Part shown: positions 10,240-56,064 of the stretch, piece after piece
How positions within the stretch are numbered: position 1 is the first letter of the stretch
How the letters are laid out: each line of letters opens with the position of its first letter
DNA from: Candidatus Poribacteria bacterium
GTDB taxonomy: Bacteria; Poribacteria; WGA-4E; PCPOR2b
DNA length: 64,000 nucleotides
Direction of reading: 5' to 3'
NCBI GenBank assembly: GCA_965204355.1
Contig: OZ241983.1
Coordinates: 500,483 to 564,482 of the forward strand
The notes under the pieces: generated by a model
Database searches by the model: none
The model's input: the letters and a program-made list of their open reading frames with translations, nothing else
Told to the model about the DNA's origin: nothing
Position numbers and translations under genes: made by a program

Positions 10240-10297
10240 GATATACCTCCTGAAGATCGGAAAAAACTACGCAAAGCGTTTTGTCAATCGAGGCAAA

Positions 10298-11122
10298 TTA
10301 CTTCCGACGACTGACAATATAGCGCCCCGATCGTTTTTTAGGATCTCTTGTCTTATATCCTTTAGTTGGAACTCCCCACGGTGTTACGGGGTGTCTTCCA
10401 CCAGCACTTTTTCCTTCGCCACCACCATGCGGGTGATCGTGTGGATTCATCGCTACACCGCGCACTTTAGGACGATGCCCCTTCCATCGATTTCGTCCTG
10501 CTTTACCGATGGTTAGGTTTGCATGGTCAAGGTTACCGACCTGCCCAATCGTTGCCATACATTGCACCGGAAGTAGACGGACTTCGCCGGAGGGCATTTG
10601 AATCCGCGCATACTTTCCTTCACGATCTACTAGCTGTGCCACGGCGCCTGCGCTCCGTACCAGTTGGCCCCCTTTCCCCGGCTGCATTTCTATATTATGT
10701 ATCGATGTGCCGAGTGGGATCCTTTCAAGTGGCATAGCATTGCCAACTTTGATGGGCGCATCTGGGCCAGCATTTAATTCATCATCGACTTGTAATCCGA
10801 GAGGTGCGATGATATAACGTTTTTCTCCATCGGCGTAATGGAGTAGGGCAATACGGGCAGATCTACTGGGGTCATACTCGATTGAGGTGACTTTGGCAGG
10901 GATGCCAAACTTATCGCGCTTAAATTCGATATTTCGATACCGTCGTTTATGGCCGCCACCGCGCCTGCGGACAGTCATACGTCCGAGCGTGTTGCGTCCG
11001 CCCTTTTTGTTCAACCCCTTTGTTAACGATTTTTCGGATTGTCGCCGGGTCACTTCTTCAAAAGCATCCCCTGTTATAAATCGGCGACTGGGTGTGACGG
11101 GTGAATATGTTTTAACTGCCAC
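10298..11122 (-). CDS. rplB: 50S ribosomal protein L2
   Basis: 274-aa [18 protein letters not shown]... with the conserved GHK and GGGEGK regions. Confidence 0.93.
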
Positions 11123-11160
11123 GCTAAATCCCTCCTAAGTAAGCCTTCAAACACGCGCCG

Positions 11161-11460
11161 CTAGATAGTTTCAAAAGCCTCAATGATTGTTCCTTCAGTA
11201 ACAGTGATGATTACCTTTTTCCAGTTAGGTCGCCGCCCCTGTCGATACCGCCAGAACTGCCCTTTGGTTTTTCCTTGGACCTGCATGGTGTTAATCTTCA
11301 CAATTTTATCTTTGAGATCGAACAACTCTTCAGCTGCTTCACGGATGTCCGCTTTATTGGCTTTGATATCAACAACAAAGGCGTATTTGTTCTCTTCTCT
11401 GAGGATTGTGGTTTTCTCTGTTATTAGCGGCTGCTTGATAATCCGATATGGGTCTTTCAT
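11161..11460 (-). CDS. rplW: 50S ribosomal protein L23
   Basis: 99-aa ORF MKDPYRIIKQPLITEKTT...; stop abuts the rplD start. Confidence 0.88.
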   Translation of the reverse strand: MKDPYRIIKQPLITEKTTILREENKYAFVVDIKANKADIREAAEELFDLKDKIVKINTMQVQGKTKGQFWRYRQGRRPNWKKVIITVTEGTIIEAFETI

Positions 11461-12117
11461 CTATGCTTCCTCAACTGATGAATCGTCTGTTGGCTGACCA
11501 AACTTTTCTTCTAGCTTCTCTGCTGCGCTTTCGGTGAAAACAATCTTATCATGCCAAAGAACGTCGTAGACATTAAGGGTATTCCAAATACAGCTGTTCA
11601 CATTTGGGATATTCCGTACAGATAGATAGATGTTTGATTCGGGTTGTCCGAGAACAAAGAGGACTTTATCCGAAAGCCCTAAATTCCCTAAAACTTGAAC
11701 CATATCCTTCGTTCTTGGGGTATCTAATGTAAAGTCTTCAATCAGAACGCAATCATCACTTTGGAATTTATCTGCCAGAGCCGAGTGTAATCCGAGTTGA
11801 CGGACCTTCTTCGGGGTGTGTTGACGATAGCTACGAGGCTTGGGACCAAATGCAACGCCACCATGTACCCGTATTGGAGATTTGGCGTCCCCGACTCGGG
11901 CTCGTCCCGTTCCTTTCTGGCGATATAGCTTTTTACCACTTCCCTGGACTTCTGACCGTGTTTTCGTAGAAGCCGTCCCTTGGCGTTGATTTGCGAGGTG
12001 TGCAACGACGCATTGATGAACAACTGCTTTATTAACAGCTACATTTACAAATGCGTCGGATAGCTCTTTTTGTCTTAGGGTATCTCCAGAACGATCATAT
12101 ACATCTAAAGCTGCCAT
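11461..12117 (-). CDS. rplD: 50S ribosomal protein L4
   Basis: 218-aa ORF with [33 protein letters not shown], the L4 signature. Confidence 0.9.
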
Positions 12118-12145
12118 ACGCGATAATCCTCATAAAGGGATCTAT

Positions 12146-12784
12146 TTACTGTTTGCCCTTCACTGCTTTCTTGATAATAAGTAATCCGTTGGGTGGACCG
12201 GGGACTGCACCTTTAACAAGTAATAGGTTCCTGTTGGAATCTGCTTGGACAACTTCTAGGTTCTGGGTTGTCACCCGTTTCCCGCCGTGGCGTCCAGGCA
12301 TTTTTTTGCCTTTGAAAACACGTGAGGGCCATGCACTGTGGCCAATGGAGCCGGGTCGCCGATGGTTCTTCTCGCTACCGTGGGTTTGCTTCATACCAGA
12401 AAAGCCCCACCGTTTAATCACCCCTGTGAAGCCGCGTCCTTTAGACGTCCCCGTTACATCAATGATGTCTCCGGGAGAGAAGATATCCACGTCAACGTTT
12501 GAGCCGACCTCCAACCCCTCTGTACTATCAACACGCATTTCCCGCAAAAACCGATGGGGGGTGACATTTGCCTTTTGGAAGTGTCCACTCTCGGGCCGAT
12601 TGACCTTATTTTCCCGTCGATCACCGAAGCCTAATTGGATGGCGTTATAACCCTCATGGTCTTGAGTTTTAATCTGTACTATCGGGCAGGGACCTGCTTC
12701 GACTACCGTGACTGGAATTGCAGTCCCGAATTCGTCAAAGATTTGTGTCATGCCGATCTTCTTTCCTAATATTCCATTACTCAT
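12146..12784 (-). CDS. rplC: 50S ribosomal protein L3
   Basis: MSNGILGKKIGMTQIFDEFG...; internal Met at 12784 chosen over the ORF start at 12799. Confidence 0.9.
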   Translation of the reverse strand: MSNGILGKKIGMTQIFDEFGTAIPVTVVEAGPCPIVQIKTQDHEGYNAIQLGFGDRRENKVNRPESGHFQKANVTPHRFLREMRVDSTEGLEVGSNVDVDIFSPGDIIDVTGTSKGRGFTGVIKRWGFSGMKQTHGSEKNHRRPGSIGHSAWPSRVFKGKKMPGRHGGKRVTTQNLEVVQADSNRNLLLVKGAVPGPPNGLLIIKKAVKGKQ

Positions 12785-18938: not shown

Positions 18939-19025
18939 AATGTCTATGACTCCTTTTTAATCTCTAATGATGGCTATTTCTTCTGATAATCCTCAGCCGA
19001 CCAAACTATAGTAAATCCTAAAAAA

Positions 19026-19112
19026 TAAATAGACGCTTTCGTTCCCCGTGTATGGTAGGCGCTGTTTCCAACTGCGCCTATACGGTGCGGTTAGAAACCG
19101 CACCTACCGGGC
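19026..19112. repeat. REP-like palindromic intergenic element, family A (copy 1, full length)
   Basis: ...TAGACGCTTTCG..CCCGTGTATGGTAGGCGCTGTTTCCAACTGCGCCTATACGGTGCGGTTAGAAACCGCACCTACCGGG holds two hairpins (TAGGCGC/GCGCCTA and GGTGCGGTT/AACCGCACC). Near-identical copies occur at 20412, 40731 (inverted) and 55908. Confidence 0.8.
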
Positions 19113-19168
19113 CTGGGGGCAATGCGGTTCGATTTGGAGTGTCTCATTAATTCTAAAATCTACTATAA

Positions 19169-20326
19169 TCAGCACGAGTTGGTCCAACTTGCTACGAAAT
19201 CATCGATGTCGAAGACGGGCATCTCGTTAAAGGTATAGGGGGTTGGTTCCTTGTTTTGAAAACCGGGCACGAGTTGAGGCGAATCGGTCTGGAGTATATT
19301 ATCCAACGGGAGAAATCGTTGCCAGAGCAGTTTTCGCTCCGACTCCGTGAAACGGTTGGACATCGGCTCGCGTGGATGAAGGCGTATGTTCTTCGCCCGT
19401 TTAGACAACAGTACGAGGCATGTCATTCGACCTTCCGCCCCCGGGTGTAGTTCAGCCAAGCCCTGACGAAACCCTCCTTCATCTAACCCAATAATCGCAC
19501 GGAAAATATGTTCGATCAGTGCGAGTTCGCTTCGTTCCAGTTCGAGAAAGTGTTTAAACTTAGCTGCCAGATGCGTCGGTAGCCTGTCAATCAACTCCGG
19601 CTGCCAGACGAAGGAGTGTGCGTGTGGGTATATGCTGCTCCTAAAGGCGCGATAGGTGTACTGTAATGTTCGACGCAGTTTCGTGCTGTAGTTGCTGCCC
19701 CAATGGAGGATTGTATTCAGGTATACAACCCCGTCACCTGCCTTCAACTCGATTGGGATGCCGCTATCCAACGGCTCATGTTCGCTTTTGGACAGTTGGC
19801 GATTTTCCGCCTCGGTATTGAACCTTCTGTGGCTACCGGGAACTGCCCACAGTACGTCGTCGTCATACAGTGGGATGTTCCATTGCGTGTATGCCGGAGG
19901 GTTCGCCAGAGAATCTGTGAACAATCCCTCCAACGGTCCCTCGCGCCACGACCGGATATCGCGATGCCAATCCCAGGGACCGTGATCTACCCGCGGGTTG
20001 CAGAACATGCCGAATTGCAGGGGCGCTACTTCCTCCGCCTGCATTAATTGCTTGCTGATTCCGTATGTATTCTCGTGGAACACGAATTCTACTGACTCTG
20101 CGGCTTCTGAGTCGACCACCCGATCAAACAGGACCCGTGGCTGCGGACCTGACTCCCACTCTCCGCCCGGTGGCTCATCCGGCTTACGATTATCCGCCCA
20201 CCATCCCTTATGCCGTTCAAGCATCCCCTCACAATGCGTCCGCAACGACTCAAGTTGTCCCGGTGGAACACAGTCGTGTACGATGATGTAACCTTTATCC
20301 TGAATTTCTTTTGTGTCTATGGGCAT
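19169..20326 (-). CDS. phytanoyl-CoA dioxygenase (PhyH) family Fe(II)/2-oxoglutarate-dependent oxygenase, paralog 1
   Basis: 385-aa ORF with W-H-x-D (WHRDIRSW) and [IV]xGSH (VPGSHRRF) motifs, shared with the two downstream paralogs. Confidence 0.65.
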   Translation of the reverse strand: MPIDTKEIQDKGYIIVHDCVPPGQLESLRTHCEGMLERHKGWWADNRKPDEPPGGEWESGPQPRVLFDRVVDSEAAESVEFVFHENTYGISKQLMQAEEVAPLQFGMFCNPRVDHGPWDWHRDIRSWREGPLEGLFTDSLANPPAYTQWNIPLYDDDVLWAVPGSHRRFNTEAENRQLSKSEHEPLDSGIPIELKAGDGVVYLNTILHWGSNYSTKLRRTLQYTYRAFRSSIYPHAHSFVWQPELIDRLPTHLAAKFKHFLELERSELALIEHIFRAIIGLDEGGFRQGLAELHPGAEGRMTCLVLLSKRAKNIRLHPREPMSNRFTESERKLLWQRFLPLDNILQTDSPQLVPGFQNKEPTPYTFNEMPVFDIDDFVASWTNSC

Positions 20327-20411
20327 TGTGACGGTATTCGTCTCCGATGTATCGGGGCATCTGTGTTTAGGACTGTCTATAGTAGATTTTAGAAGTAATT
20401 AGACACTCCAA

Positions 20412-20502
20412 CCCGGTGCGGTTAGGAAAACGAAACGACCGTTTGGTAGGCGCTGTTTCTAACTGCGCCTATTCGGTGCGGTTAGAAACCGCACCTACCG
20501 GG
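20412..20502. repeat. REP-like palindromic intergenic element, family A (copy 2)
   Basis: CCCGGTGCGGTTAGGAAAACGAAACGACCGTTTGGTAGGCGCTGTTTCTAACTGCGCCTATTCGGTGCGGTTAGAAACCGCACCTACCGGG, between PhyH paralogs 1 and 2. Confidence 0.8.
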
Positions 20503-30845: not shown

Positions 30846-31159
30846 TCGTGTTAGAAAACTACCTTGTTATGAATTCTGGGATTGCCGTTTCATTCTCTTG
30901 GGAGTGGGAAGTATCACCAGGCGGTGATGTCATATCCCCCCACGAAAAGGATAGTAATGTATACCCTATACAGAAAGCCCTGTCAACTCATAATTCTAGC
31001 TGACAGCGCTCTTATTTGAATCTCACCATCTTTATTTCGTTGACTTTTTTTTTACGGCTCATGTATGATTGAGAAATTATGGTGAACTTTAGAATTACTT
31101 GAGGGGTGTGCATAAATCACTTTCGTATGGGAGAGCAATCTGCGATTCAGACAGATGGC

Positions 31160-31235
31160 ACATGTCGCCCCGCTGGGGCTTTGGGGGATGGGGCTATCCG
31201 TATGCTATAAACATGTCGCCCCGCTGGGGCTAAAT
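31160..31235. repeat. REP-like bipartite palindromic element, family B (copy 1)
   Basis: ACATGTCGCCCCGCTGGGGCTT-(28 nt)-CTATAAACATGTCGCCCCGCTGGGGCTAAAT. Each half holds the hairpin GCCCC-GCT-GGGGC. Related copies at 46610 and 51126. Confidence 0.75.
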
Positions 31236-31504
31236 GCACCCTGTCCCTTTCTAAAATAGTCCCGTTTCACTTTCCAGTTTCTATCCCCGATAAATCGGGA
31301 TTAAGAAACCTGAGAATCCTGATTCAGACAATAATGATGCACACCCCTCAATTACTTGGACACTCTGTACCGGCGAGGTTTCCTAACCGCACCGCCTCCC
31401 GACGAGTCGGGACAGGACATGGGGAGCGAAAGTGTCTACATATTTTGATAATTCACAATAAATCAACCCAGTCACATAGTGATTCTGATAATAAGGGAGG
31501 GCTG

Positions 31505-40567: not shown

Positions 40568-40730
40568 AGAATTAGTATAACGCAAGTTGCGCCCTGTGCC
40601 CTGTTAGGGCTAAATGAATTTCTGAACGGGAGAAACTCAATGGGGTCATTTGTTGATTAACTGATAAACCCTATACATTGCACTCCTCATAAAGTTTGAG
40701 AAAATAATTCGGTAATTCTATATTTCTCCC

Positions 40731-40822
40731 AGGCCCGGTAGGTGCGTGGGTTGAAACGGCGCAGTTACAAACAGCGCCTACCAAACGGGAGCCCGGTAGG
40801 TGCGGTTTCTAACCGCACCGGG
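40731..40822. repeat. REP-like palindromic element, family A (copy 3, inverted orientation)
   Basis: CCCGGTAGGTGCG...GCGCAGTTACAAACAGCGCCTACC...CCCGGTAGGTGCGGTTTCTAACCGCACCGGG is the reverse complement of the copies at 19026 and 20412. Confidence 0.75.
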
Positions 40823-41569: not shown

Positions 41570-43726
41570 TCATTCAGCTACGGGATTCATAAGTATATTT
41601 CCTTCGCTATCCAGATATCCGCGATAGTCAGGCGGAACGACGATGGTAGAATCGTATTCGTCAATAAGCAGGGGACCGGTTGTGCCTTCGTCTCCGAGAT
41701 CGTGGCGTGAGACGACGGGGGTATCGATTGTTCCCCACGATGCGCCGAAATGAGCCTCCCGACTCGGTGCGCGTACGCCGAGGCGTTCTGCTGGATTGAG
41801 GGCACCTTGTTGACCGCGTATACCCGCCTGCCCAATCAATCGTACCGCCACAACTTCGACTGGATTGTCCGGATCGGATCTATGTCCATAGAGCCGTTCG
41901 TGTTCTGTCTCAAAGGTTGTATGCAACGCCTCCACTGTTGTTTCGGTGAAGTTCTCATCTGCCACTGGTAGGCGTATCTCTGAGGCTTGCCCCTTAAAAC
42001 GGATGTCTACGCTGCAACTCAGCGTCACTTGGTCGGCGGGGTAGCCTTCGGTCTCGAATTGGGCGAGCATATTGCGCTGCATCTCCGCTTTGATTTGTTC
42101 CAAAGTCCCTGCATTGAGCGTTTCGCCGGAGAGAAGACAACTTCGGACATCGTGATGCTCTACACCGGAAAAGAGTAAGCCCAGGGTGCTGAATAGACCG
42201 GGCAGCGGCGGCACGATAACCTGACGGATCAAGAGTTCTTTTGCCAACCCTGCTGCGTGGATTGGACCGGATCCGCCAAACGCCATCAGGACGAACTCCC
42301 GTGGATCACGTCCACGCTCGGTGGAAACCGCGCGTAGTGCGCGCATGGTGCGGGCATTGGCGATTCGGTGAATCCCCTCCGCAGCTTGGACCAGATTCAT
42401 GCCGAGGGGTACAGCGATACGATCATGTATCGCTCGGTGTGCGGCTTCAATGTCGATGCTGACTTCGCCATCAGCCAATTCACCGGGGCGGATATAACCC
42501 AACACTACATTGGCATCGGTGACAGTCGGTTCTGTCCCTCCACGTTGATAGCAAGCTGGGCCCGGGACAGCGCCTGCACTGCGGGGACCGACGTGCAGAC
42601 CGCCTACACCATCCAGATACGCGATGCTACCACCGCCGGATCCAACTTCAGCGATGTCGATGCTCGGCGCGCGGATCAGTTCGCCGCCCCCGCCGACGAG
42701 TCGGTTTCCTGCCGAAATCGAAGCGCCAACTTCATATTCTGGGCTGTAAGCGACTGCGCCATCTTCAATCATAGAGGCTTTGGCGGTGGTGCCTCCCATG
42801 TCGAGTGTAATGAGGTTATCTGTTCCCAGCCGTTGTGCGGTGAATCCAGCCGCTAGAACACCGGCAGCGGGCCCCGATTCCAAAACAAAGACCGGCAGTT
42901 GTGCAGCGTCTGCCTCTGGCGTTAAGCCGCCCGCTGATTGCATCATCAGCAACGGTCCCTCAATTCCCATCTCCTGTAGACCGCTACGCATCGCGTTCAA
43001 GTACCGCTGCATGACGGGCCGGACATAAGCGTTGACGACGGTGGTGGCGGTGCGTTCGTACTCTTTGCGTTCCGGGAGGACTTCGGAAGAGAGCGAAACA
43101 GGGACATTTGGCAATTCTGTTCGCAGAAAATCACCGACAATGTTTTCGTGTTGTGGGAAGGCGTAGGCATGGAGGGTACAGACCGCTACAGATTCGACTG
43201 CCTCTTTTTCCAACTCCTCCTTGAGACGCCACAGTTCTGACTCCGATAGTGGGGTCAGCACCTCGCCGGACGCAGAGATCCGTTCCGTGAGTTCAAAGCG
43301 CAGATAGCGATCAACAAGTGCTTGCGGTTTTTCAAAGAACAGGTCATACATCTGGGGTGCACGGATGCGCCTCAGTTCGAGAACGTCTCGGAAGCCTTTG
43401 GTGGTGATCAGTGCAGTTTTTGCACCCCGTTTTTCCAGAACGGCGTTGGTTGCTACTGTGGTGCCGTGTGCGACTTCGCTGACGTTTGTTCCTAACCCCC
43501 CTGTCAAGTCCCGATCCATCGGGATTGCCTTTCCCCCCTTGTCAGGGGGGTTGGCGTTGGTTGTGTGCAGCAGATGCTCGATCGCGTTTAGCACCGCTCG
43601 CTCAAAATTGGGAGGTGTGGACGGGACTTTATGGGTCCAGAGGTTTCCGTTAGCGTCGATTAGGACGACATCGGTGAAGGTGCCGCCGACATCCGCACCG
43701 ATTCGCAATGTGTTTTGATTGGTCAT
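41570..43726 (-). CDS. hydantoinase A / N-methylhydantoinase A (HyuA, oxoprolinase-like) family protein
   Basis: 718-aa ORF with LRIGADVGGTFTDVVLID... and HGTTVATNAVLE, the hydantoinase A signature. Confidence 0.85.
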   Translation of the reverse strand: MTNQNTLRIGADVGGTFTDVVLIDANGNLWTHKVPSTPPNFERAVLNAIEHLLHTTNANPPDKGGKAIPMDRDLTGGLGTNVSEVAHGTTVATNAVLEKRGAKTALITTKGFRDVLELRRIRAPQMYDLFFEKPQALVDRYLRFELTERISASGEVLTPLSESELWRLKEELEKEAVESVAVCTLHAYAFPQHENIVGDFLRTELPNVPVSLSSEVLPERKEYERTATTVVNAYVRPVMQRYLNAMRSGLQEMGIEGPLLMMQSAGGLTPEADAAQLPVFVLESGPAAGVLAAGFTAQRLGTDNLITLDMGGTTAKASMIEDGAVAYSPEYEVGASISAGNRLVGGGGELIRAPSIDIAEVGSGGGSIAYLDGVGGLHVGPRSAGAVPGPACYQRGGTEPTVTDANVVLGYIRPGELADGEVSIDIEAAHRAIHDRIAVPLGMNLVQAAEGIHRIANARTMRALRAVSTERGRDPREFVLMAFGGSGPIHAAGLAKELLIRQVIVPPLPGLFSTLGLLFSGVEHHDVRSCLLSGETLNAGTLEQIKAEMQRNMLAQFETEGYPADQVTLSCSVDIRFKGQASEIRLPVADENFTETTVEALHTTFETEHERLYGHRSDPDNPVEVVAVRLIGQAGIRGQQGALNPAERLGVRAPSREAHFGASWGTIDTPVVSRHDLGDEGTTGPLLIDEYDSTIVVPPDYRGYLDSEGNILMNPVAE
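43507..43545. repeat. family-C repeat unit embedded in-frame inside the hydantoinase A CDS
   Basis: GTCCCGATCCATC...CCCCCCTTGTCAGGGGGG shares exact 13-mer and 18-mer matches with the intergenic tandem repeat at 53203-53292. It encodes ...NPPDKGGKAIPMDRD... in hyuA. Confidence 0.6.
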
Positions 43727-43728
43727 CG

Positions 43729-45426
43729 TTATCTTGTCCCGTTCCGAGGACTCCGATGAATCGGAGGGATTACCGGTAATGTGATGTGAGAAGGGTATTG
43801 TGTGTTATGATAGATTGTCTGATGCGCCACCTCAATTTCGGTGTCCAGTCCCGGCGTGCTGCCGGTGTTTTGGTTCCGGTCAAAGCGCGGGAAGTTGCTA
43901 CTGGAGACTTCGACGCGAATTTGGTGCCCCGCCTTGAAGAGATTGCTTGTTTCCCAGAGTACAATCTTGTAGACACAGATGGTTTCGGGTTCAATCAGTG
44001 TTGGCTCTTCATAAGAATTGCGAAATCGCGCCCGCACAATGCCTTCGCAGATATTGATCGCTTTCCCGCCCGGATGCACATCGACAAGCGTTGCAGTGAA
44101 GTCGGTATCTGGCGCGGTGGAGGCGGCATAGAGCGTTAGTTCAATCTGTCCTGTAACTTCTAAATCCTCGGTGAGCGGGGGTGTTGAATAGACTAATACA
44201 TCGTCTCGGCGTTCCACAGATCGCCGGTCTTGTGGCCCCGTGTTATCAATAAACATGCTCTGACCGCCCACGGTGGGGACGGGATTTTCGGGATCATAGG
44301 TGAAAGAATCTGTTGGTTCGTTTTGTGGCGGTTGAGCGGTCAGCTCGCCATCGCCGTGGAGGGAGTTGGCGCGTCCCCCGCTGTGCAAATAAAACTTAGT
44401 GTATTGCGTCCGTGCGGGGGGCCACTCGTGCTCGTGGCGCCAGATATTCGCTCCCATCACAAAGATTCGGATAGGTGGCTCGTCGTCGATCCCGGTGTCG
44501 ATTCCTTTTAGTCGTTGATCGTACCAACGGATGTGCGCGTCCGGAATATCCACCATTGCGTTTGAACCGAAGTCGATGTCACCGAACGGCTCGGCGCTGC
44601 CGATTGCGGTATGCGTCCACGGACCCACGAGGAGTTTTGTTTTCGATCGAGTTTCCGGGGTTCGGGCTTGTGTCGTCCACCCGGTGAAACACTTGAAGCC
44701 TTCGTGCACGAGATTATCGTACCATCCGGTGATAAAATATGCGGGTGTGTCTACGTCGGAGTATCTATACTTCATGCTGTAGGATTTCCAGAAATCATCA
44801 AAGGCGTTGTGTCGGATCACCTCTCGATAGAACGGACGATCACCGATGCTATCAAGGGCAGAAATTAGCGGCAACCGCCGGTAGACCTCCTCCCAATCAA
44901 TTAGATCTCTCGGCGCGTTCTGGTTTGTGCGGTCGCCGAGCCAGATGAAGTTCATGGCGTTCTGGAGTTGTAGCACACCGTTATACCGCATGTGGCCGTA
45001 GTTGTCCTCTTGGTTGGCGATCGGGACGAGCCCCTTGACGTAGGGGCTGCGGAGCGCTGCTGGTAGAATCTGGGTAAATCCGGGATAGGAAATGCCGAAA
45101 GTTCCGATATTTCCGTCACACCACGGTTGAGTGCCCAACCACTGTTGTGTGTCGTAGCCGTCGTTGGTCTCGTCGATGTAGGGTCGCCACACCCCCTCTG
45201 AATCGTAGCGTCCACGGGAGTCCTGCATCACCACTGCGTAGCCGCTTTGTGCGAAGCGCACCGCCCAATCCACATACCGCGGGTGTTGGGTGCTGTAGGG
45301 AGATCGGATGAGCAGGGCAGGGAACTTATCGCCTACAGCCGGACGGTACAAGGCACCGTAGAGCCGGACGCCATCGCGCATGGGAATTTTGAGATCTAAC
45401 TGGATGCGGAGATTGTGGTTTGACAT
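43729..45426 (-). CDS. CocE/NonD family hydrolase (X-Pro dipeptidyl-peptidase S15-like)
   Basis: 565-aa ORF: ...IPMRDGVRLYGALYRPA...LLIRSPYSTQ... plus a C-terminal beta-sandwich domain. Confidence 0.8.
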   Translation of the reverse strand: MSNHNLRIQLDLKIPMRDGVRLYGALYRPAVGDKFPALLIRSPYSTQHPRYVDWAVRFAQSGYAVVMQDSRGRYDSEGVWRPYIDETNDGYDTQQWLGTQPWCDGNIGTFGISYPGFTQILPAALRSPYVKGLVPIANQEDNYGHMRYNGVLQLQNAMNFIWLGDRTNQNAPRDLIDWEEVYRRLPLISALDSIGDRPFYREVIRHNAFDDFWKSYSMKYRYSDVDTPAYFITGWYDNLVHEGFKCFTGWTTQARTPETRSKTKLLVGPWTHTAIGSAEPFGDIDFGSNAMVDIPDAHIRWYDQRLKGIDTGIDDEPPIRIFVMGANIWRHEHEWPPARTQYTKFYLHSGGRANSLHGDGELTAQPPQNEPTDSFTYDPENPVPTVGGQSMFIDNTGPQDRRSVERRDDVLVYSTPPLTEDLEVTGQIELTLYAASTAPDTDFTATLVDVHPGGKAINICEGIVRARFRNSYEEPTLIEPETICVYKIVLWETSNLFKAGHQIRVEVSSSNFPRFDRNQNTGSTPGLDTEIEVAHQTIYHNTQYPSHITLPVIPPIHRSPRNGTR

Positions 45427-46398: not shown

Positions 46399-46609
46399 GA
46401 GAATACTTTTACGAGATAATTTTTTGAAGTCGATTTTGGAAAATCGACCTACAGCAGGGCTAATCGGGGCCCATTAACTTTGGTGCTAGTTAGTGAGAAA
46501 GTCGTTTCCACATTGTTCCAGTCGCTTTGGATCCCGATTTATCGGGGAGTTCATTGGTCGGTTGGTTCATTCATTCTTCTTACGTTCCATCCTTCGGATA
46601 CACATGTCG

Positions 46610-46660
46610 CCCCGCTGGGGCTTTAGGATATTTGTTTATCCGTGTACTATAAACATGTCG
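46610..46660. repeat. REP-like element, family B (copy 2, second half truncated or disrupted)
   Basis: ACACATGTCGCCCCGCTGGGGCTTTAGG...CTATAAACATGTCG; the matching ...GGGGCTAAATGAACC tail lies ~70 nt away at ~46727. Confidence 0.6.
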
Positions 46661-46844: not shown

Positions 46845-49800
46845 TTACTTGAGTATCAGCATCCGTCGCGTCGCTGTGAATTCTCCTGCTGTCAGCGTAT
46901 AGAAATAGAGGCCACTGGCAACAGGTTCTCCAAGTTGGTTACGTCCGTCCCAATAGGCTGCACGGCTGCGACTCTGATACATACCCGCTGCTTGATGCCC
47001 CACCGCCAACCGCCGAATTGATTGCCCATTCCCATCATAAATCGTCAGCGTGACTTCTGCCGGCTCCGCCAACTGATACGGAATCCATGTCTCCGGGTTA
47101 AATGGGTTTGGATAGTTACGGAGCAATGCAGTCTCATCGGGAATCAGTGAAGCCAACAGTTTTTCGAGATTTTCGATGCCCTGTCTGAACGCGAGCGAGC
47201 CGTCGTCTTCCAACCGTGCCTGTGCGATCCACGCTTCTATCATTGCCGCATCTATGTCATCTGTCCCAACCAGCGGTGCTGCGGGAGCGGCGGCGTTGCC
47301 GATTGCCTGCGCGACGACAGCCAGATCAAGGATGTTGACAACACCATCACCGTTGACATCCGCAGGATCGTCAGCAGAAACCCTTTGATTCAGTTTCTGT
47401 GCGACAAGCACCAGATCCACAATGGTGACAACCCCATCTCGATTTACGTCTCCCGTAGTAAGCTCGCCCTCAACAGTGATGCGGATTCCGTGGGCAATTG
47501 CATCAATCGTATCACCGCCAAGCGAGACGAACTGGAGGTTACGCAGTGTTACCTCCGACTCTCCACTCGATTTCGCTTTGAAGCGCGCCTTCACCAGGGT
47601 GCCGGTGCCGGTGACGCCTTGAGTGGATAGCCGCGCAGCGGTGAGCCCAGTGATTTGACCTTTACTATTATCAATGCTCCCACTTTGAAAGAAGGTTGCT
47701 GCGCCTGTCTTTAGGAAACCACCTTCGCTCACGTCTACGGCTTCAAGTATGTTGGGATCAAACACAATATCAAACTGATAGCCCATCAAGTTCGAGACAT
47801 TTCGGGCGTGAATATCGAGGGTAAACGTCTCGCCACGATGAATGGTTGCTGGAGAAATGGTGTATTCAACACCGGTATTTGCCACGGTATATTCCGTACC
47901 CGGTTCAAACCCAAAAAAGCCGTTACCATCGTCATCATGGATACTAACCGCGACTAATAAGACATTTCTTCCCTGCTTCAGTGCGACTGAGACAAAATCT
48001 TGGTAATCGTTACCATGCCAATAAGGTCTGCGCCTGTAAATCGCAGTCCCGTTGAGCCAAACCTTTACCCCGCGTTTGCCGCCGACGTACATCGTTGTAT
48101 TCTGTTCCCGCGGAGAATACAGCGATATAGAACCGTAGACCGCTCCATCTCCGTGGATCGCTCCGTCAAGATGGGAACGTTTCAACATATCTTCAATGAT
48201 AGCTCCGAGGTTATTCCAGCCCGTAGGTGGGAGGTTATGGTAGGTCCATACATCATCACCGACAGGTTTTCCTGCTGTTGCCCCACGGGTAGCAATCCCG
48301 ATCTCTGTTACCGTGCCCCCACTCACTTCTGATAGCAAATCTATGTTTCTGCTATCCAGTCTTGCCTCCGGTAACACAACCCATAGCCACGGGCCCTCTA
48401 TTTTCGGTCCTCCTTTTGGGAACGCCGGATTACCGAACCATGTAAGTTTTATATTCTCTCGTAACCCGTCCAAAGGCGAAAGGTCAGAAATCTTGTTGTC
48501 GTAGATTCCCAGCCATTCCAAGTTGGCTAACCCTGCAATCGACGATATATCCGATATATTGTTCTCACCAAGATCCAGACGAGTTAACTTGGCTAACCTC
48601 GAAAGGACTGATATATCTGATATTCCGTTGCCGCGAAGATACAGTTCTTTCAAACCCGTTAAACTCGCCAAAGGCATAAGGTTTGATAGATCTGCGCCAC
48701 AAATATCTATCCTTTCCATTTTTGTTAATCCTGCAAGGGGTGACAGATCGGATATGGGGTTGCCCCATGTATTAATGCCTTTCAGGTTGATTAACCCTGC
48801 AAGGGGCGATATGTCAGAGATTTTGCCTTTGCCATCGGAAAAAGCTATCCACTCCAGATTAATTAGTCCTGCAACCGGCGACAAGTCGGTTACCAAAGTG
48901 TCATCCAATACCAATTCAGTGAGATTTGTTAAACTTCTCACTGGAGATAAATCGGATACCAAAGTGTGATTCAACACCAGATATTTGAGGTTTTTTAAGC
49001 CCTGCAGGGGTGATAGATCAGATATGGGATTATAGTGAAGGGAGAGTCTACGCAGGTTGATTAATCCCGCTATCGGCGAAAGGTCAGATACCTGATTGCC
49101 CTGCCCTCCCCAATGACCAAGAATTAACTCGTCCAAATTTGTTGCAAACTGAAGCCCTGTCAAATCTTGGATGCCCTTGTTCCGTGCATCGAGTTCTCTC
49201 AACCTTTTCATCTCCTCCACAGTAATTGGAGCATTGGGGTTTTTACCAAGTTCCTCTGCAATTGCAGCACGGAGGTTGGGGTCAGGAATACGAACAACGG
49301 TTCCCGGCGGCTGGTCAGGCTGCGAGGGACTGTCTACCTGTTCGTCAGGGAAATCCAATGCGTAAATGATCGCAGGAAAACTTGATGTCCATGCGTCCCG
49401 TTTCATGCTGCCATTGGGACTGTCCAATACCAATAATCCTGCGTTCTGTAGCCCTACATTCTCACGGATCTTCTCTTGGAAGGCTGCTGTCTCTAACCCA
49501 ACGACCGCGGCAGCGTATTCAGCGTCCACCTCACCCTGAAACGCCTCATGGAAACGAGCAATCGGTTCAATATCATCAACCGCGCCGTCTGTCGCTTCAA
49601 GAGCACCCCTATACCGCTCCATATCTTCAGCGATGAGCGCGTCCAGCCTCGACTGCTCGACGTAAAGGCGTAACACCTGCGCTTTGTCATAAGTTGGGTT
49701 GGCATTGCTCTCTATCACGGGACGCACCTGATCCACAACGGCTTTTATGCCTTCGGTATGGCAACCGAAACAGGAGAGTCCGTTCCGCACCGTCGGATCA

Positions 49801-51008
49801 CTCGCTGCGGGATTAGAAACAATCCCTATCGGTGCTGCGTCCAACCGCGAACCCGCCGCCGTCGTGATGTAGTAACCTTGTAGCCCGTTGGGCAGGTTGA
49901 AGATAACCTCGCCGCCATCATGGGTGAAAGCGAGGGGGTGGTTGAAGATGTTCTGTGTGCCGACACTGCCAGCGAAGTCGTAACTTTTCCAATATGCGTC
50001 ATAGCGAGAGGTATGTCGTTCTATCACCCGGTTGTTTGGAGACACCCCTGAATTGTTAGTCCCTGCCCGCCAGACACGCACACCCGGTGCATTGGTGATA
50101 TTGCGCGCCACATCAACCTCAAGTCGAGTTTCTAATTCCCTATCTGTCAGTGGCAAATCGAGTAGATCGTGGTACAATGGGGGTAAAGATGCTGTCGCAA
50201 GAAACCAGTCAACATGCACCGATGGCATATCACACTTCATCTCCGTCTGTAACCGCGTCAGTTGTACCTTCAGGGCGGTCTGTGTTGGGGCATCATACGC
50301 GATATGGTAGGGATATGTGCCTTCAATCTGCGTCCAAGCGTCATTGACATCCCACTCGTAGTGTCTGAGGTCGATGTAGAAAATTGTCCCCTGAGTGTCT
50401 ATCGGCTCCGGGTTGGTAACGGCACTCCCCCATGAGAGGCTGTTGACTAACTTGTTAAGTCCCTTACGGTATTCTTGGAGGATGCTCGGTGGCTCGCCTG
50501 CGTTGTAGAGGTGGGTGAGTGTGAAGTAACGGGCAAAGGCGCGGTTAAATGGTGAGAGAGTCATCAGGTGGGTTTCGATGCTATTGAGCATTTCACTGGG
50601 GGAGATGAGGCGACGGTCTGTAGGAGCGGGTGCCGTCCAATCGGGTGCACTGGCTAAAATCCAGTTTTTCACTGTTTCAATCTGCGGATCGGGTAGAGGG
50701 GGGCCTCCCAGCGGCATCAGTTGTCCCCCTTCTCCAAGAAGCCGCTTATACAGTCTAGAAGCTTCTGGGGTTCCCGGAACAACGGGACCGTTTTCTGTAA
50801 TGAGTGCTTTGTGTTCCATTAAGAGTGTTTCTTTATAGGCACCGTTAGGACCGTGACAGTTGAAGCAGCTCTGTTGAAAGATGGCGTAGGTATCTAGGGC
50901 AATCTGTTGTTGGGCGGATATGTTTTGGGAGCATGCGATGAGGATTAATAGACTGATGAGTGCGATGCGATACTGCTGCTTACAAACCACTGAATAACGC
51001 TTACACAT
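46845..51008 (-). CDS. giant secreted multidomain protein (1.39k aa) with cytochrome c (2x CxxCH), leucine-rich repeat, cohesin-like and dockerin-like domains and a T9SS C-terminal sorting domain
   Basis: Signal peptide MCKRYSVVCKQQYRIALISLLILIACSQNISAQ (start ATG 51008). CFNCHG and CFGCHTE heme motifs. ~11 LRRs (L..L.L..N.ISDLSPL). Cohesin-like beta-sandwich. Two dockerin-like DVNRDGVV/DVNGDGVV calcium loops. C-terminal NYPNPFNPETWIPYQL...IYDGNGQ...WDGRNQLGEPVASGLYFYTL matches the Por_Secre_tail pattern. Confidence 0.7.
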   Translation of the reverse strand: MCKRYSVVCKQQYRIALISLLILIACSQNISAQQQIALDTYAIFQQSCFNCHGPNGAYKETLLMEHKALITENGPVVPGTPEASRLYKRLLGEGGQLMPLGGPPLPDPQIETVKNWILASAPDWTAPAPTDRRLISPSEMLNSIETHLMTLSPFNRAFARYFTLTHLYNAGEPPSILQEYRKGLNKLVNSLSWGSAVTNPEPIDTQGTIFYIDLRHYEWDVNDAWTQIEGTYPYHIAYDAPTQTALKVQLTRLQTEMKCDMPSVHVDWFLATASLPPLYHDLLDLPLTDRELETRLEVDVARNITNAPGVRVWRAGTNNSGVSPNNRVIERHTSRYDAYWKSYDFAGSVGTQNIFNHPLAFTHDGGEVIFNLPNGLQGYYITTAAGSRLDAAPIGIVSNPAASDPTVRNGLSCFGCHTEGIKAVVDQVRPVIESNANPTYDKAQVLRLYVEQSRLDALIAEDMERYRGALEATDGAVDDIEPIARFHEAFQGEVDAEYAAAVVGLETAAFQEKIRENVGLQNAGLLVLDSPNGSMKRDAWTSSFPAIIYALDFPDEQVDSPSQPDQPPGTVVRIPDPNLRAAIAEELGKNPNAPITVEEMKRLRELDARNKGIQDLTGLQFATNLDELILGHWGGQGNQVSDLSPIAGLINLRRLSLHYNPISDLSPLQGLKNLKYLVLNHTLVSDLSPVRSLTNLTELVLDDTLVTDLSPVAGLINLEWIAFSDGKGKISDISPLAGLINLKGINTWGNPISDLSPLAGLTKMERIDICGADLSNLMPLASLTGLKELYLRGNGISDISVLSRLAKLTRLDLGENNISDISSIAGLANLEWLGIYDNKISDLSPLDGLRENIKLTWFGNPAFPKGGPKIEGPWLWVVLPEARLDSRNIDLLSEVSGGTVTEIGIATRGATAGKPVGDDVWTYHNLPPTGWNNLGAIIEDMLKRSHLDGAIHGDGAVYGSISLYSPREQNTTMYVGGKRGVKVWLNGTAIYRRRPYWHGNDYQDFVSVALKQGRNVLLVAVSIHDDDGNGFFGFEPGTEYTVANTGVEYTISPATIHRGETFTLDIHARNVSNLMGYQFDIVFDPNILEAVDVSEGGFLKTGAATFFQSGSIDNSKGQITGLTAARLSTQGVTGTGTLVKARFKAKSSGESEVTLRNLQFVSLGGDTIDAIAHGIRITVEGELTTGDVNRDGVVTIVDLVLVAQKLNQRVSADDPADVNGDGVVNILDLAVVAQAIGNAAAPAAPLVGTDDIDAAMIEAWIAQARLEDDGSLAFRQGIENLEKLLASLIPDETALLRNYPNPFNPETWIPYQLAEPAEVTLTIYDGNGQSIRRLAVGHQAAGMYQSRSRAAYWDGRNQLGEPVASGLYFYTLTAGEFTATRRMLILK

Positions 51009-51125
51009 AGAGAGTGGCTCCTGAAATGCGAGTTTGTAAAGGTTACGGCACACGGCGTCGCGACAAATTGGGACGATAATCTGTGCCCTCTGTCTCATCC
51101 GTTGAATCCGCGATTTAGACAAAGG

Positions 51126-51210
51126 GAACATGTCGCCCCTCTGGGGCTTGGAAGGAAGGGCCTATCGCCCGGCTATAAACATATCGCCCCTCTGGGGCTA
51201 AATACCCCCA
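51126..51210. repeat. REP-like bipartite element, family B (copy 3)
   Basis: AACATGTCGCCCCTCTGGGGCTTGG-(N)-GGCTATAAACATATCGCCCCTCTGGGGCTAAATACC, between the giant gene's start and the AKR gene. Confidence 0.75.
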
Positions 51211-53084: not shown

Positions 53085-53202
53085 AGTTTGGGCTCCTTTA
53101 CCCTTTAGGACTTACGCAAATTGAATAGAAAATTGGCATATTTTGCTGAAAAGTCGTTATTGGGTTGCATTTAACCCCCTAAATTCCCCAACCCCCCTAG
53201 CC

Positions 53203-53292
53203 CCCCTTGTCAGGGGGGAAAGATGAATCGAGACTTATCAGGGGGAAAGATGGATCGGGACTTATCAGGGGGGAAACCCTTGTCAGGGGGAC
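53203..53292. repeat. tandem ~27-bp direct repeat (family C; about 3.5 units) with CCCCCC/GGGGGG palindromic cores
   Basis: CCCCCCTTGTCAGGGGGGAAAGATGAATCGAGA / CTTATCAGGGGGAAAGATGGATCGGGA / CTTATCAGGGGGGAAACCC / TTGTCAGGGGGA, between the enolase-superfamily and creatininase genes. Confidence 0.8.
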
Positions 53293-53314
53293 TTTAAGAG
53301 GAAATGCGTAAGCC

Positions 53315-54568
53315 CTATCCTTCTAATCGTCGGACGGTGCTACCATCCTGCACGGCATCATAGATTTCCTCGAACCCAGCGCTTCCATCATCGGGAACAG
53401 CGTCCAGATTCGATCCCGCCTCGCAGGTCGGCATGGCATCGTTAGGATAGACTGCGTGGAGGTCCTGCTTGCTGCAACCGTAGTAAGTCGTCTCTCCGCT
53501 TGCGCGGGTATAGCGATAGACGTGACGGGGTGGATCCACAAAGGAGTAGTCTACCTTGTACTTCTGCACCGCTTCTTCGTCAACCTCTACGCCGATGCCC
53601 GGTTTTTCTGGGACACGGTAGAACCCGCCGCGCAGCTCAATCGGTTCTGTGATGAGCTGGCTTTCCCAGATATTCATGCAGGTAATCGCGGGCCACTTTG
53701 CTTGGGCACAAACAGCACCGAGATGAGCTGCCCATGTTGTGGTGATGCCGGTGCCGACGAGTTGCAGCCAGAAGGGTTTGTTCGCTTCCTCGCAAACGGT
53801 TGCTTGCTTTAACAGACGATATGCACCCACACCGATGACGAAGCCGTCCGCCACGTCTTCGTGCAGCGTGGTTAGGATGGGTGGAGAACCGTAGTGCATT
53901 GCCACGGGCCGGTTGATGCGTTGGCGAATTTGTTTGTTCCCCGCGACATCGCCCTGTGGGATCGGGGATTCGATCATGGCGACCTGTTCGTACTGTTCGA
54001 GGGTCTTGAGAAACTCGACGGCGTTGGCTGCGTTTGCTAGGGTTGCATTGAAGTCCAGATCCAGTTTGAACTGCGAGGGCACATCTTCGATGATGGCTTG
54101 GATGGCTGCGTGTAGGTCGTACCATGTCCGTGCTTTGAGTTTAGAGGACATATAGCCCTGTGCAGCCGCATCAGCGCATTGCTGCGCCCAATCTTTCGGC
54201 GGCATGTCCATCGCCCACCAAGAGAGTGGACACCACTCTCGGACTTTCGTTCCCAGAAGGCGATAGGCGGGGGTGTTTAAGGATTTGCCGACTGCGTCGA
54301 AGAGCGCGATTTGGACGCCGGCGCCCAGACCGTCCTCCCACAGCAGATCTCCAGCCTCGCGTCCCACGATCTGTTCTTGGATATCATCGGACACTTGCGC
54401 CCAAGTGTAGTTGGGGATGGTTTCGCCCCAGCCGACCACACCGTTATCAAGGGTGATTTTGCAGATTTGGACGATGTGCCAGTGGGGCAGCCAATACTGC
54501 ATGTGTTCATTTGTGTGTGGCGTGAAGGGAACGTCTAAGTAGGTAAGTTCAACATCGGTGATTTTCAT
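53315..54568 (-). CDS. enolase superfamily protein (mandelate racemase / muconate lactonizing enzyme-like)
   Basis: 417 aa, MKITDVELTYLDVPF... N-terminal capping domain and barrel domain pattern of MR/MLE family. Confidence 0.7.
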   Translation of the reverse strand: MKITDVELTYLDVPFTPHTNEHMQYWLPHWHIVQICKITLDNGVVGWGETIPNYTWAQVSDDIQEQIVGREAGDLLWEDGLGAGVQIALFDAVGKSLNTPAYRLLGTKVREWCPLSWWAMDMPPKDWAQQCADAAAQGYMSSKLKARTWYDLHAAIQAIIEDVPSQFKLDLDFNATLANAANAVEFLKTLEQYEQVAMIESPIPQGDVAGNKQIRQRINRPVAMHYGSPPILTTLHEDVADGFVIGVGAYRLLKQATVCEEANKPFWLQLVGTGITTTWAAHLGAVCAQAKWPAITCMNIWESQLITEPIELRGGFYRVPEKPGIGVEVDEEAVQKYKVDYSFVDPPRHVYRYTRASGETTYYGCSKQDLHAVYPNDAMPTCEAGSNLDAVPDDGSAGFEEIYDAVQDGSTVRRLEG

Positions 54569-55621: not shown

Positions 55622-55907
55622 TTGTTTTTTTGCCCTTTGCTTTGTGTTGGTGTGTTTCTTGAGATATTATCACAGATTCTACTAGGAAACCATGAAAAAC
55701 TTCACTGGGGGAAAGCGGCTATTGTGGTATTTTTGCGACGGCGGTGTGGCACAGTTTCGACAGTCTCTTTGTGAGGATGACACTCCCTTCGAGATTACGA
55801 CTTATGTTAAAAGCAGGTGCACAGTTGTCCGAAGAAGGCGTTTTTCGAAAAACTCCAATACATTTCCCATGATTCGGGATAGTTGTGGTATCTATGGTAA
55901 ACCCTAA

Positions 55908-55970
55908 AAACAGATAGACGCTTTCGCTCCCCGTGTATGGTAGGCGCTGTTTCCAACTGCGCCTATACGG
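55908..55970. repeat. REP-like element, family A (copy 4, first hairpin only)
   Basis: AAACAGATAGACGCTTTCGCTCCCCGTGTATGGTAGGCGCTGTTTCCAACTGCGCCTATACGG is near-identical to 19026-19086. Confidence 0.75.
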
Positions 55971-56064
55971 TTTGTATCAGATCCTATCTAACTCCGTTGA
56001 AATATTGACAGAACCTGATGAACCTTTTCAGTCCACCCAACACTAAAAGGGGTAGGAGGACATT

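Follow-up and report, generated by a model that had tools for sequence, protein, structure and literature searches.

A palindromic insert in frame within a hydantoinase A gene of a Candidatus Poribacteria bacterium, probably made of intergenic hairpin modules

The palindromic elements of Rickettsia (RPEs), about 100 to 150 bp long and encoding conserved peptides of 30-50 aa, are to our knowledge confined to Rickettsia and its relatives. In Nostoc, small dispersed repeats (SDR, 21-27 nt), reportedly treated by Elhai et al. in 2008, are very small hairpin-forming units, nested in other repeats or in tandem arrays and sometimes located in coding sequence. The passages devoted to RPEs in two later articles (Ogata et al. 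2000, via PMC10969869, PMC3184786) describe palindromic repeats that are found between genes and also in frame in unrelated housekeeping and metabolic genes, where they are translated; according to the same passages they sit where the fold tolerates them, the host protein still works, and the size given in review is ~150 bp. The REP, BIME and REPIN sequences, mobilised by RAYT (Y1) transposases, are short G+C-rich imperfect palindromes of 20-40 nt, extragenic and marked at one end by a GTAG or CGTC tag (PMC3116915, PMC3733652). Finally, in-frame fusions are documented for bacterial MITEs, namely ERIC, BOX, BRE, Nezha and the Anabaena MITEs (PMC3184786).

The DNA analysed here, referred to as the window, is a stretch of 64,000 nt from a Candidatus Poribacteria bacterium. 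It carries a hyuA-like gene of the hydantoinase/oxoprolinase A subunit family at positions 41570-43726 of the minus strand, which the open reading frame list and its translation show to be intact, with 718 aa and the Pfam domains Hydant_A_N (5.9e-50), Hydantoinase_A (1.1e-90) and Hydant_A_C. Its nearest homologs carry the name Candidatus Poribacteria, and the nearest solved structures are N-methylhydantoinase 7hk5 and 6yra. The original prediction located a palindromic repeat in frame at 43507-43545 of this gene, as an insertion of ~13-15 aa in a region longer than usual. DNA alignments with the ortholog L004, which is empty at this site, and with orthologs bearing another insert (type B, see below) confirm a clean 19-aa insertion relative to syntenic orthologs and its location, but the boundaries were too narrow and the size too small. 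The insert, hereafter type A, extends from 43493 to 43552 on the minus strand and comprises 20 codons, AAC..TTA (NPPDKGGKAIPMDRDLTGGL), in place of one Ala codon of the empty orthologs, for a net gain of 57 nt (19 aa). The Hydant_A_N match of the window protein is indeed 22 residues longer than the profile.

The palindromic shape of a repeat unit was correctly anticipated, but not as a single stem with an arm. Type A is a palindrome of 59 nt end to end with 15-nt terminal inverted repeats, the left one being AACCCCCCTGTCAAG (43494-43508, plus strand), the outer stem of the predicted fold, and the right one CTTGTCAGGGGGGTT (43538-43552, plus strand), predicted to pair with it; the reverse complement of the latter, AACCCCCCTGACAAG, matches the left arm at 14/15 positions. 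Two hairpins compose the element: the C6-loop-G6 hairpin CCCCCCTTGTCAGGGGGG (43533-43550) and the inner TCCCGAT..ATCGGGA hairpin TCCCGATCCATCGGGA (43509-43524), whose motif class recurs in many intergenic repeats of these genomes. The whole insert is predicted to fold as a single long hairpin of -19.2 to -19.9 kcal/mol (z -5.4 and -4.6), and its C and G runs are translated as Pro-Pro and Gly-Gly. No direct repeat indicative of a target-site duplication was seen at the hyuA junctions in the ortholog DNA alignments, no known RNA family was returned by an Rfam scan of the whole window, and neither the exact DNA string of the insert nor its peptide led to anything relevant in the literature. When the 30-aa insert region was compared with 1.84 billion representative proteins, the one match, a Gram-positive repeat adhesin, was judged spurious.

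Palindromes and G runs are prone to sequencing error, and the insert could in principle have arisen during sequencing or assembly, for instance as a hairpin chimera. The type A insert is identical in the window, L131 and L132. The three independent assemblies that bear it come from different sources (an ENA scaffold and a Logan contig besides the window) and diverge by 2% in the remainder of hyuA; moreover, the P0001 cluster counts 56 member sequences and type B is found in long-read contigs of several Mb. Taken together, these observations leave an artefact scarcely credible. The ortholog alignment shows an empty site in 73 of the 96 sequences of the tree, nearest relatives included, and L004, a syntenic ortholog of 95.9% nucleotide identity, is likewise empty. 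Apart from P0095, every sequence at 69-86% identity lacks an insert, and the empty site is therefore taken as the ancestral state. Despite its insert, hyuA is still under purifying selection, dN/dS against orthologs being 0.07-0.13, and this holds also between insert-bearing alleles.

An exact 18-mer match with an intergenic repeat, beyond chance, was the basis of the original prediction, and it stands. In the window, CCCCCCTTGTCAGGGGGG occurs exactly twice, at 43533-43550 and 53201-53218, when ~0.06 occurrences would be expected even with up to 3 mismatches, and none of 100 shuffles gave two. Moreover, GATGGATCGGGACTT is found without mismatch at 43506-43520 (minus strand) and 53249-53263, and a longer match of 25 nt at 92% links 43496-43520 with 53249-53273. 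The second locus, 9.7 kb from the hyuA insert, is a MITE-like element of 208 bp (53108-53315) lying between an MR_MLE-family gene and a creatininase-family gene, with the terminal repeats GGACTTACGCA / TGCGTAAGCCC, and it includes a 27-nt tandem repeat of 2.6 copies (53206-53276). Both hairpins of type A are represented in this element, the inner one in the array only as the half-site GATGGATCGGGA, in contrast to the full hairpin of the hyuA insert. Read along the coding strand of hyuA, the insert is colinear with the array on its plus strand, except that its hairpin loop is reverse-complemented (TGACAA vs TTGTCA) and that 9 extra bases complete the inner hairpin. The 208-bp element also occurs in L004, at the same place, flanked by a 7-8-bp direct repeat GAAGGATA and with one 27-nt unit fewer, and is missing in L005, where the MR_MLE-family and creatininase-family genes are 13 nt apart. 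With its terminal repeats and direct repeat, this neighbouring element does look like a classical MITE. Since L004 has the intergenic element and yet an empty hyuA, the direction of transfer was presumably from the repeat family to hyuA.

L004-L008 and a Poribacteria MAG, the latter at three more loci, also contain the hairpin modules, in agreement with a dispersed repeat family having further loci in Poribacteria genomes. Twelve intergenic loci against one genic locus were counted in ~253 kb of related DNA, a figure that refers to the regions scanned. An ordinary lineage-specific extension of the loop, through slippage, duplication or an old functional peptide, with the likeness to repeats due to G/C runs, would agree with the variable length of this loop in the wider family. 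The G6/C6 runs are however not enriched in the window (17 seen vs ~22 expected), and 7 of these 17 fall in the hyuA insert and the intergenic repeat, so that the 18-mer is not frequent for reasons of composition; no genome was found that lacks the family and encodes the same peptide with unrelated codons. Together with the exact matches of 18 and 15 nt (again against ~0.06 expected), the palindromic architecture (z about -5), the empty outgroups and the mostly non-synonymous changes within the insert, as seen in type B, these results make such an extension very improbable.

We therefore consider it probable that a small non-coding palindromic repeat element, made of intergenic hairpin modules, was inserted in the hyuA frame and is tolerated in a disordered loop. 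The element would have been assembled from hairpin modules of the mosaic intergenic repeats of a Poribacteria-like genome and would have entered the hyuA reading frame in a recent ancestor of the window lineage, where, with a length divisible by three and no stop in this frame, it does not interrupt translation. We infer the mobility of this exact unit from the shared modules, since the ~253 kb of related DNA yielded no second full-length copy of either type A or type B and the only protein match was spurious; the unit thus appears to have moved as a mobile element. No transposase for the hyuA unit was identified among the window genes, profiled in part. The missing target duplication points to a route dependent on hairpins or single strands, similar to IS200/IS605 or REP/RAYT, or to template switching, and not to cut-and-paste. 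Elsewhere in the window, the inverted repeats at 19134-20411 were considered as a candidate insertion sequence and rejected, the enclosed ORF, judged by eye, not being transposase-like.

With respect to the protein, the surface loop expected by the original prediction is what the AlphaFold model displays: the insert lies in a low-confidence loop between the helix 41-58 and the strand 82-88, residues 59-76 having a pLDDT below 50, and it aligns to a gap in 7hk5. The model thus places the insert in the disordered surface alpha1-beta4 loop of the N-terminal domain. It would persist there because the extra residues of such a loop leave the enzyme undisturbed, and it presumably has no function for the protein.

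Compared with the described systems, the hairpin modules fit the 20-40 nt of REP/REPIN sequences in size, and 12 intergenic loci of them lie in the 253 kb scanned. The mosaics in alternating orientation with short linkers, the lack of target duplication and the unit number varying among close relatives are REP-like; in contrast, the hyuA copy is intragenic and its modules have neither GTAG nor CGTC, the C run being preceded by AAGT, TTT or AA. The terminal inverted repeats of the hyuA unit (15-nt arms, 14/15), its long hairpin fold, the empty and filled sites in relatives and the occasional in-frame insertion inside protein genes recall MITEs, from which it differs by a size at the extreme small end of the range and by having no visible target-site duplication; within the ~253 kb of related DNA, modules are shared, and no complete type A or type B unit recurs. 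As for the Nostoc SDRs, the likeness concerns the tiny hairpin units, their nesting and their occurrence in coding sequence, in another phylum and with other sequences.

The same codon of hyuA is occupied in other orthologs by different inserts. Type B, a different 60-nt palindrome with the terminal inverted repeats CCCCCCTG / CAGGGGGG, was found in 19 ortholog clusters, and a short 33-nt form, equal to type B minus 27 nt, in one cluster. In addition, the same loop of P0095, an ortholog of 70% identity, holds a palindrome unrelated to these, its stem being 16 bp long, so that the allelic series includes the empty site, 33 nt, 57 nt (type A), 60 nt (type B) and, in this more distant ortholog, the unrelated palindrome. 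Among 121 orthologs, internal insertions of at least 6 aa are restricted to five positions, and 23 of them, of three types, are at this site. Since at least three different palindromes were taken up in different lineages, the loop appears to be the main insertion-tolerant site of HyuA.

Types A and B have in common the first hairpin, AAAGRCAA and the 3' end CTTGNCAGGGGGGT, which could also be explained by one ancient insertion, with A, B and short B as in-place derivatives through gain, loss and conversion of modules from other copies of the family, and with the empty sites in the clade of 86-98% identity as precise losses or recombinant replacements. The relation of the short form to type B, the variable number of 27-nt units in the intergenic element of close relatives and the evident recombination (see below) are in agreement with such a history. 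However, the first hairpin is read in different frames in A and B, and their 5' junctions differ by one base, on which we base the argument for separate events. P0002 and P0004, which stand closest to the type A lineage, are empty, and the empty alleles without exception match the ancestral length, a precision seldom expected of random deletion. A single ancient insertion hence seems to us rather unlikely. In the preferred reading, with separate insertions, the loop would have been filled by at least three different palindromes and the alleles would then have been moved by homologous recombination. The hyuA gene is mosaic: between L129 (type B) and L130 (empty), blocks with 0-1 mismatches per 100 nt alternate with blocks with 6-13, and this mosaic structure indicates that presence and absence alleles were shuffled between lineages by homologous recombination. 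Because of this recombination, the patchy distribution of inserts on the protein tree does not translate into a number of gains and losses.

A passive insert does not account for all the data on type B. The seven type B alleles show 1-7 differences in their 63 nt, whereas third codon positions in the 150 nt flanking each end diverge by 18-36%; the insert is thus 3-5 times less divergent than adjacent synonymous sites (p<0.05 in all 21 pairwise Fisher tests, which are not independent). The 30 nt directly on each side are 13-14% divergent, thus giving no sign of co-converted flanks, the junctions are the same in all type B alleles, and pairing is kept in 97.5% of the cells of the 23-pair hairpin. 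Such conservation is not expected of a neutral relic. Several hypotheses could be issued for an insert that, at least as type B, is not passive: (i) selection at the nucleotide level, with an mRNA or DNA hairpin slowing translation after the first subdomain or binding a factor; and (ii) a site-specific, homing-like spread, with copies younger than their flanks. Type A itself encodes Pro-Pro-Asp, a strong EF-P-dependent stalling motif, beside a strong hairpin. Against these hypotheses, a covariation test on the seven alleles, which hold too little variation, gave no compensatory pairs and four changes break pairs; the excess of changes at unpaired positions is not significant with seven alleles, most lineages thrive without any insert (73/96), and neither an enzyme nor a master copy was found in ~253 kb of related DNA and the window genes, profiled in part. 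We hold a non-passive role to be doubtful, and tolerance of a passive palindrome remains our preferred explanation.

The same process seems to operate at other genes. Next to hyuA, ortholog comparison reveals a second in-frame insertion of hairpin modules, 30 nt long (TCCGATTCATCGGAGTCCTCGGAACGGGAC, 43736-43765, minus strand), within the final codons of the Peptidase_S15 gene upstream. The insertion at this 3' end amounts to 30 or 60 nt among orthologs, whose products have 555 aa (L129, L130), 557 aa (L006), 565 aa (window, L004, L008) and 575 aa (L005). In metagenomes, related C6-loop-G6 mini-elements are in frame in Pfam-verified Obg, PutA, methylase and RluD-type genes, the Obg case being a 20-aa insertion relative to solved Obg. 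TsaD, from the same metagenome scan, was discarded, its hairpin-coded peptide replacing a loop of equal length and not being a clear insertion. It is conceivable, if improbable, that the hyuA inserts are members of an undescribed and widespread class of C6-loop-G6 hairpin elements of ~30-60 nt that settle in frame within the coding sequences of many uncultured bacteria, here homing to a specific codon or kept by nucleotide-level selection. If true, homing or such selection would explain why type B is conserved beyond synonymous sites.

The parallel with RPEs drawn by the original prediction holds for the outcome, not for membership. As for RPEs, the hyuA insert is in frame in a functional gene and at a tolerant site (pLDDT below 50; dN/dS 0.07-0.13). 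It differs in that the unit has 57-63 nt, compared with ~150 bp, encodes 19-21 aa and consists of hairpin modules of 16-18 nt. Furthermore, its modules occur in Poribacteria-like genomes and are mostly intergenic (12 loci vs one genic in 253 kb). By analogy, we regard the insertion as an event of a kind already known from Rickettsia, the in-frame palindromic repeat, now seen in a group for which no earlier case had been described. It would extend the Rickettsia-type phenomenon, in which selfish palindromes add peptide loops to working enzymes, to a free-living candidate phylum with large genomes. The allelic series at a single codon offers material on the arrival of such elements, on their tolerance by the protein and on the conservation of one type beyond neutral expectation. 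Such inserts lengthen proteins, and their Pro/Gly-rich segments could be taken for genuine linkers when proteins are annotated or their structures predicted.

The hyuA gene (41570..43726, minus strand) encodes a hydantoinase A of 718 aa in which three hydantoinase/oxoprolinase A domains are present. Syntenic orthologs with the same neighbours, Peptidase_S15 upstream and a Macro-domain gene downstream, were fetched for comparison. The empty allele of the L004 ortholog (95.9% nucleotide identity to the window gene) reads ..GAT GCC GCG GGA.., where the window allele reads ..AAC GCC [AAC CCC CCT GAC AAG GGG GGA AAG GCA ATC CCG ATG GAT CGG GAC TTG ACA GGG GGG TTA] GGA.. This codon alignment confirms the in-frame palindromic insert of the original prediction, but its limits are thus 43493-43552 on the minus (hyuA) strand and not 43507-43545; 20 codons replace one, a net gain of 57 nt. 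In this insert, called type A, terminal inverted repeats of 15 nt (AACCCCCCTGNCAAG; 14/15 positions matching) surround GGGGGAAAGGCA and a small, perfectly paired hairpin, TCCCGAT-CC-ATCGGGA, and the whole folds into a single long hairpin on either strand (-19.2 and -19.9 kcal/mol as DNA, z -5.4 and -4.6).

The intergenic partner of this segment lies at 53206-53276 and is a tandem array of 27-nt units. A search of the window found the 18-mer CCCCCCTTGTCAGGGGGG in exact copies at 43533-43550 and 53201-53218, with no further match at up to three mismatches, whereas about 0.06 were expected and two matches occurred in 0 of 100 shuffles. GATGGATCGGGACTT is also exact at 43506-43520 (minus strand) and 53249-53263, and the match between gene and array reaches 25 nt at 92% identity. 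The window contains 17 G6/C6 runs where ~22 are expected, hence no enrichment, and seven of them lie in the hyuA insert and the array. Given these matches, the shuffle test and the unenriched runs, the shared repeat noticed originally stands. On its coding strand, type A is colinear with the array's plus strand; relative to the latter, the loop of the first hairpin is reverse-complemented, and nine added bases complete the inner hairpin.

The array belongs to a MITE-like intergenic element of 208 bp (53108-53315) with terminal repeats GGACTTACGCA and TGCGTAAGCCC; an MR_MLE-family gene lies on one side of it and a creatininase-family gene on the other. The insertion point of the element is the stop codon of the MR_MLE-family gene, where the junction itself creates the TAG stop. 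L004 has it at the same place, bounded by a 7-8-bp direct repeat (GAAGGATA) and with one 27-nt unit fewer than the window; this copy contains nested extra repeats. In L005 the element is missing, and 13 nt separate the two genes. Near-identical cores, AAGT-C5-TGACAA-GGG-TTT-C6-TGATAAG-TCCCGATCCATC-TTT-C6-TGACAA-G6-CTAGGGGGG..ATTTAGGGGGTT, occur at three other loci of one Candidatus Poribacteria MAG, and simpler forms in L005, L006 and L008. Hairpins of the TCCCGAT..ATCGGGA type are dispersed in intergenic repeats, one of them splitting a C6/G6 hairpin in L003, and C5-6-loop-G5-6 hairpins were found at 12 intergenic loci in ~253 kb of related DNA, the hyuA site being the sole genic one. L004 has the intergenic element and an empty hyuA, so that the hairpin modules moved from the repeat family into hyuA and not the opposite way. 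Two further repeat families were seen in the window: a dispersed one made of two adjoining hairpins, GGTAGGCGCTGTTTCCAACTGCGCCTA and CGGTGCGGTTAGAAACCGCACCTACCGGGC, intergenic and in both orientations (19014-19112, 20405-20502, 40722-40820, 55899-55971), and a third family bounded by CACATGTCGCCCCGCTGGGGC and ATAAACATGTCG (31137-31241, 46601-46660, 51105-51209), which occurs in L006 as well, in the intergenic region 5031-5337.

Alleles were counted in the 96 sequences of the tree alignment, i.e. the query and its 95 closest homologs. The empty allele (73/96) covers the nearest relatives and every distant sequence except P0095, in agreement with the insertion that had been expected from an ortholog comparison. 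Type A is found in two sequences, the window gene and the 56-member cluster P0001, and type B (TPLRRGERQGSPSPPPLSGGS) in 19; P0015 has a short 33-nt form and P0095, 70% identical, an unrelated insert. The type B insertion, A-CCCCCCTGCGAAGGGGGGAAAGACAAGGGAGCCCTTCGCCTCCCCCCTTGTCAGGGGGG, is clean, 60 nt long and forms a hairpin of 23 pairs. Types A and B have in common the first hairpin, AAAGRCAA and the end CTTGNCAGGGGGG; their 5' junctions differ by one base and the first hairpin is read in different frames (PPDKGGK in type A, PLRRGER in type B), pointing to putatively separate events. In P0095 the insert is another palindrome, CCCCTCTCCCGCTCGC-GCACTGT-GCGAGCGGGAGAGGGG, whose 16-bp stem is perfectly paired (-24.2 kcal/mol). 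This palindrome corresponds to L007:10180-10245 (GCA_030157145.1, JASDBE010000043.1), in the same alpha1-beta4 loop of the 70%-identical HyuA, and no clear second copy was found within the 21-kb L007 locus. Across 121 orthologs, internal insertions of at least 6 aa occur at five positions only, and the hyuA insert site accounts for 23 sequences and three insert types. The same loop has been used repeatedly by different palindromes. A rarer second insertion site in the N-terminal domain was seen at the protein level after STPPD (residue 42 of P0002), with SSAESTTG in P0099 and LSTGLGAS in P0113.

The type A insert is identical across three assemblies whose genes themselves differ by 2%, and no insert is present in P0002 and P0004, the outgroups closest to it; the simplest reading would be a recent gain. 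Type B is patchily distributed on the protein tree. L129 (type B, 10001-12169) and L130 (empty, 10001-12106) are 95.4% identical overall, with blocks of 0-1 alternating with blocks of 6-13 mismatches per 100 nt and the insertion inside a divergent block. Since hyuA is such a recombination mosaic, gains and losses are not countable from the tree. The L129/L130 pattern indicates that homologous recombination is frequent among related Poribacteria lineages.

The AlphaFold model of HyuA (mean pLDDT 73.9, pTM 0.78) places residues 59-76, at pLDDT below 50, between a helix (41-58) and a strand (82-88) with the HGTTV motif, and the insert position is a gap in the solved N-methylhydantoinase 7hk5, so that the loop location anticipated for the insert is borne out. 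As dN/dS was 0.07-0.13 in all hyuA pairs compared, including those with the insert on both sides, the enzyme has stayed under selection despite the extra loop. Within the actin-like ATPase fold, we assume that this loop is placed away from the nucleotide cleft.

Similar inserts occur in other genes. Within its last codons, the Peptidase_S15 gene (43729..45426) contains a 30-nt in-frame hairpin-module insert, TCCGATTCATCGGAGTCCTCGGAACGGGAC (PIHRSPRNGT; 43736-43765, minus strand), present in the window, L004 and L008, absent from L129, L130 and L006 and doubled in L005, with protein lengths of 555, 557, 565 and 575 aa across these forms. At 43724-43735, the ATGA overlap of the peptidase stop and hyuA start of orthologs is gone, AAGATAA standing instead, and the window HyuA starts two codons later than its orthologs. 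A scan of JGI metagenomes for CCCCCCTNNNNAGGGGGGAAAG gave at least 120 loci; among the matches listed, several lie inside long ORFs, Pfam-confirmed as Obg, PutA, N6_N4 methylase, Eco57I-type methylase, RluD-type synthase and PrmC, and at least 20 distinct places have the short architecture C6-TN4A-G6-AAAG-N0-4-G5-7 of the 33-nt form of P0015. In Obg, the hairpin segment is a 20-aa insertion relative to solved Obg. TsaD is not a clear example of insertion, the hairpin-coded segment replacing a loop of equal length. These metagenome matches may represent either one family or convergence. In-frame C6-loop-G6 mini-elements encoding PPDKGGKRGV-like peptides were seen inside Obg, PutA, DNA methylase, RluD-type and PrmC-type genes of the JGI metagenome contigs L109:1711-1741, L087:6869-6895, L076, L079, L066, L083 and L122, the last with three copies within one Eco57I-type ORF. 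The 46-kb contig Ga0265593_1000158 (L054, L023, L071) has at least nine copies of AAAGCACATCCCCCCTG-CCCCCCTTCAAAGGGGGG-AAAGCAAAA, some within long ORFs, which may be a separate high-copy family sharing the hairpin core. At 48462-49098, repeats of 66-nt period lie within a 1428-aa ORF (46845..51131, minus strand) whose orthologs have LRR, cohesin and dockerin domains; they would be an ordinary coding repeat of ~22 aa, probably the leucine-rich repeats.

Rickettsia palindromic elements (RPE) are an established example of palindromic repeats lying in frame within genes; such insertions are more sporadic for ERIC, BOX, BRE and Anabaena MITEs (PMC3184786, PMC10969869). The hyuA element is like all of these in outcome, but it is not an RPE, by size and by host, and it has neither the GTAG/CGTC tag of REPs nor a target duplication as in classical MITEs. 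Our literature searches found no paper containing the hyuA insert sequences and none describing dispersed palindromes in Poribacteria. The insert is real and was in substance correctly read at the outset; it is another case of the already known in-frame palindromic repeats, and its mobilising mechanism is inferred.

Seven type B alleles of 63 nt each (L005, L008, L129, L133-L136) were compared. They differ at 1-7 of 63 nt, against 18-36% at the third codon positions of the 150 nt flanking each side (Fisher tests, p<0.05 in 21/21 pairs, mostly <0.002, the pairs not being independent), so that type B is 3-5 times more conserved than the adjoining synonymous sites; the 30 nt directly beside it on each side are 13-14% divergent. 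The changes within it are mostly non-synonymous (~10 at first or second codon positions against 3), hence it is not the peptide that is conserved. No compensatory pairs were found in the hairpin among the seven alleles, and 97.5% of cells are still paired. Type B is either younger than its flanks in each lineage, by site-specific spread, or constrained at the nucleotide level. Two aspects are worth pursuing: that different palindromes have reused one loop, and that type B is conserved more strongly than expected.
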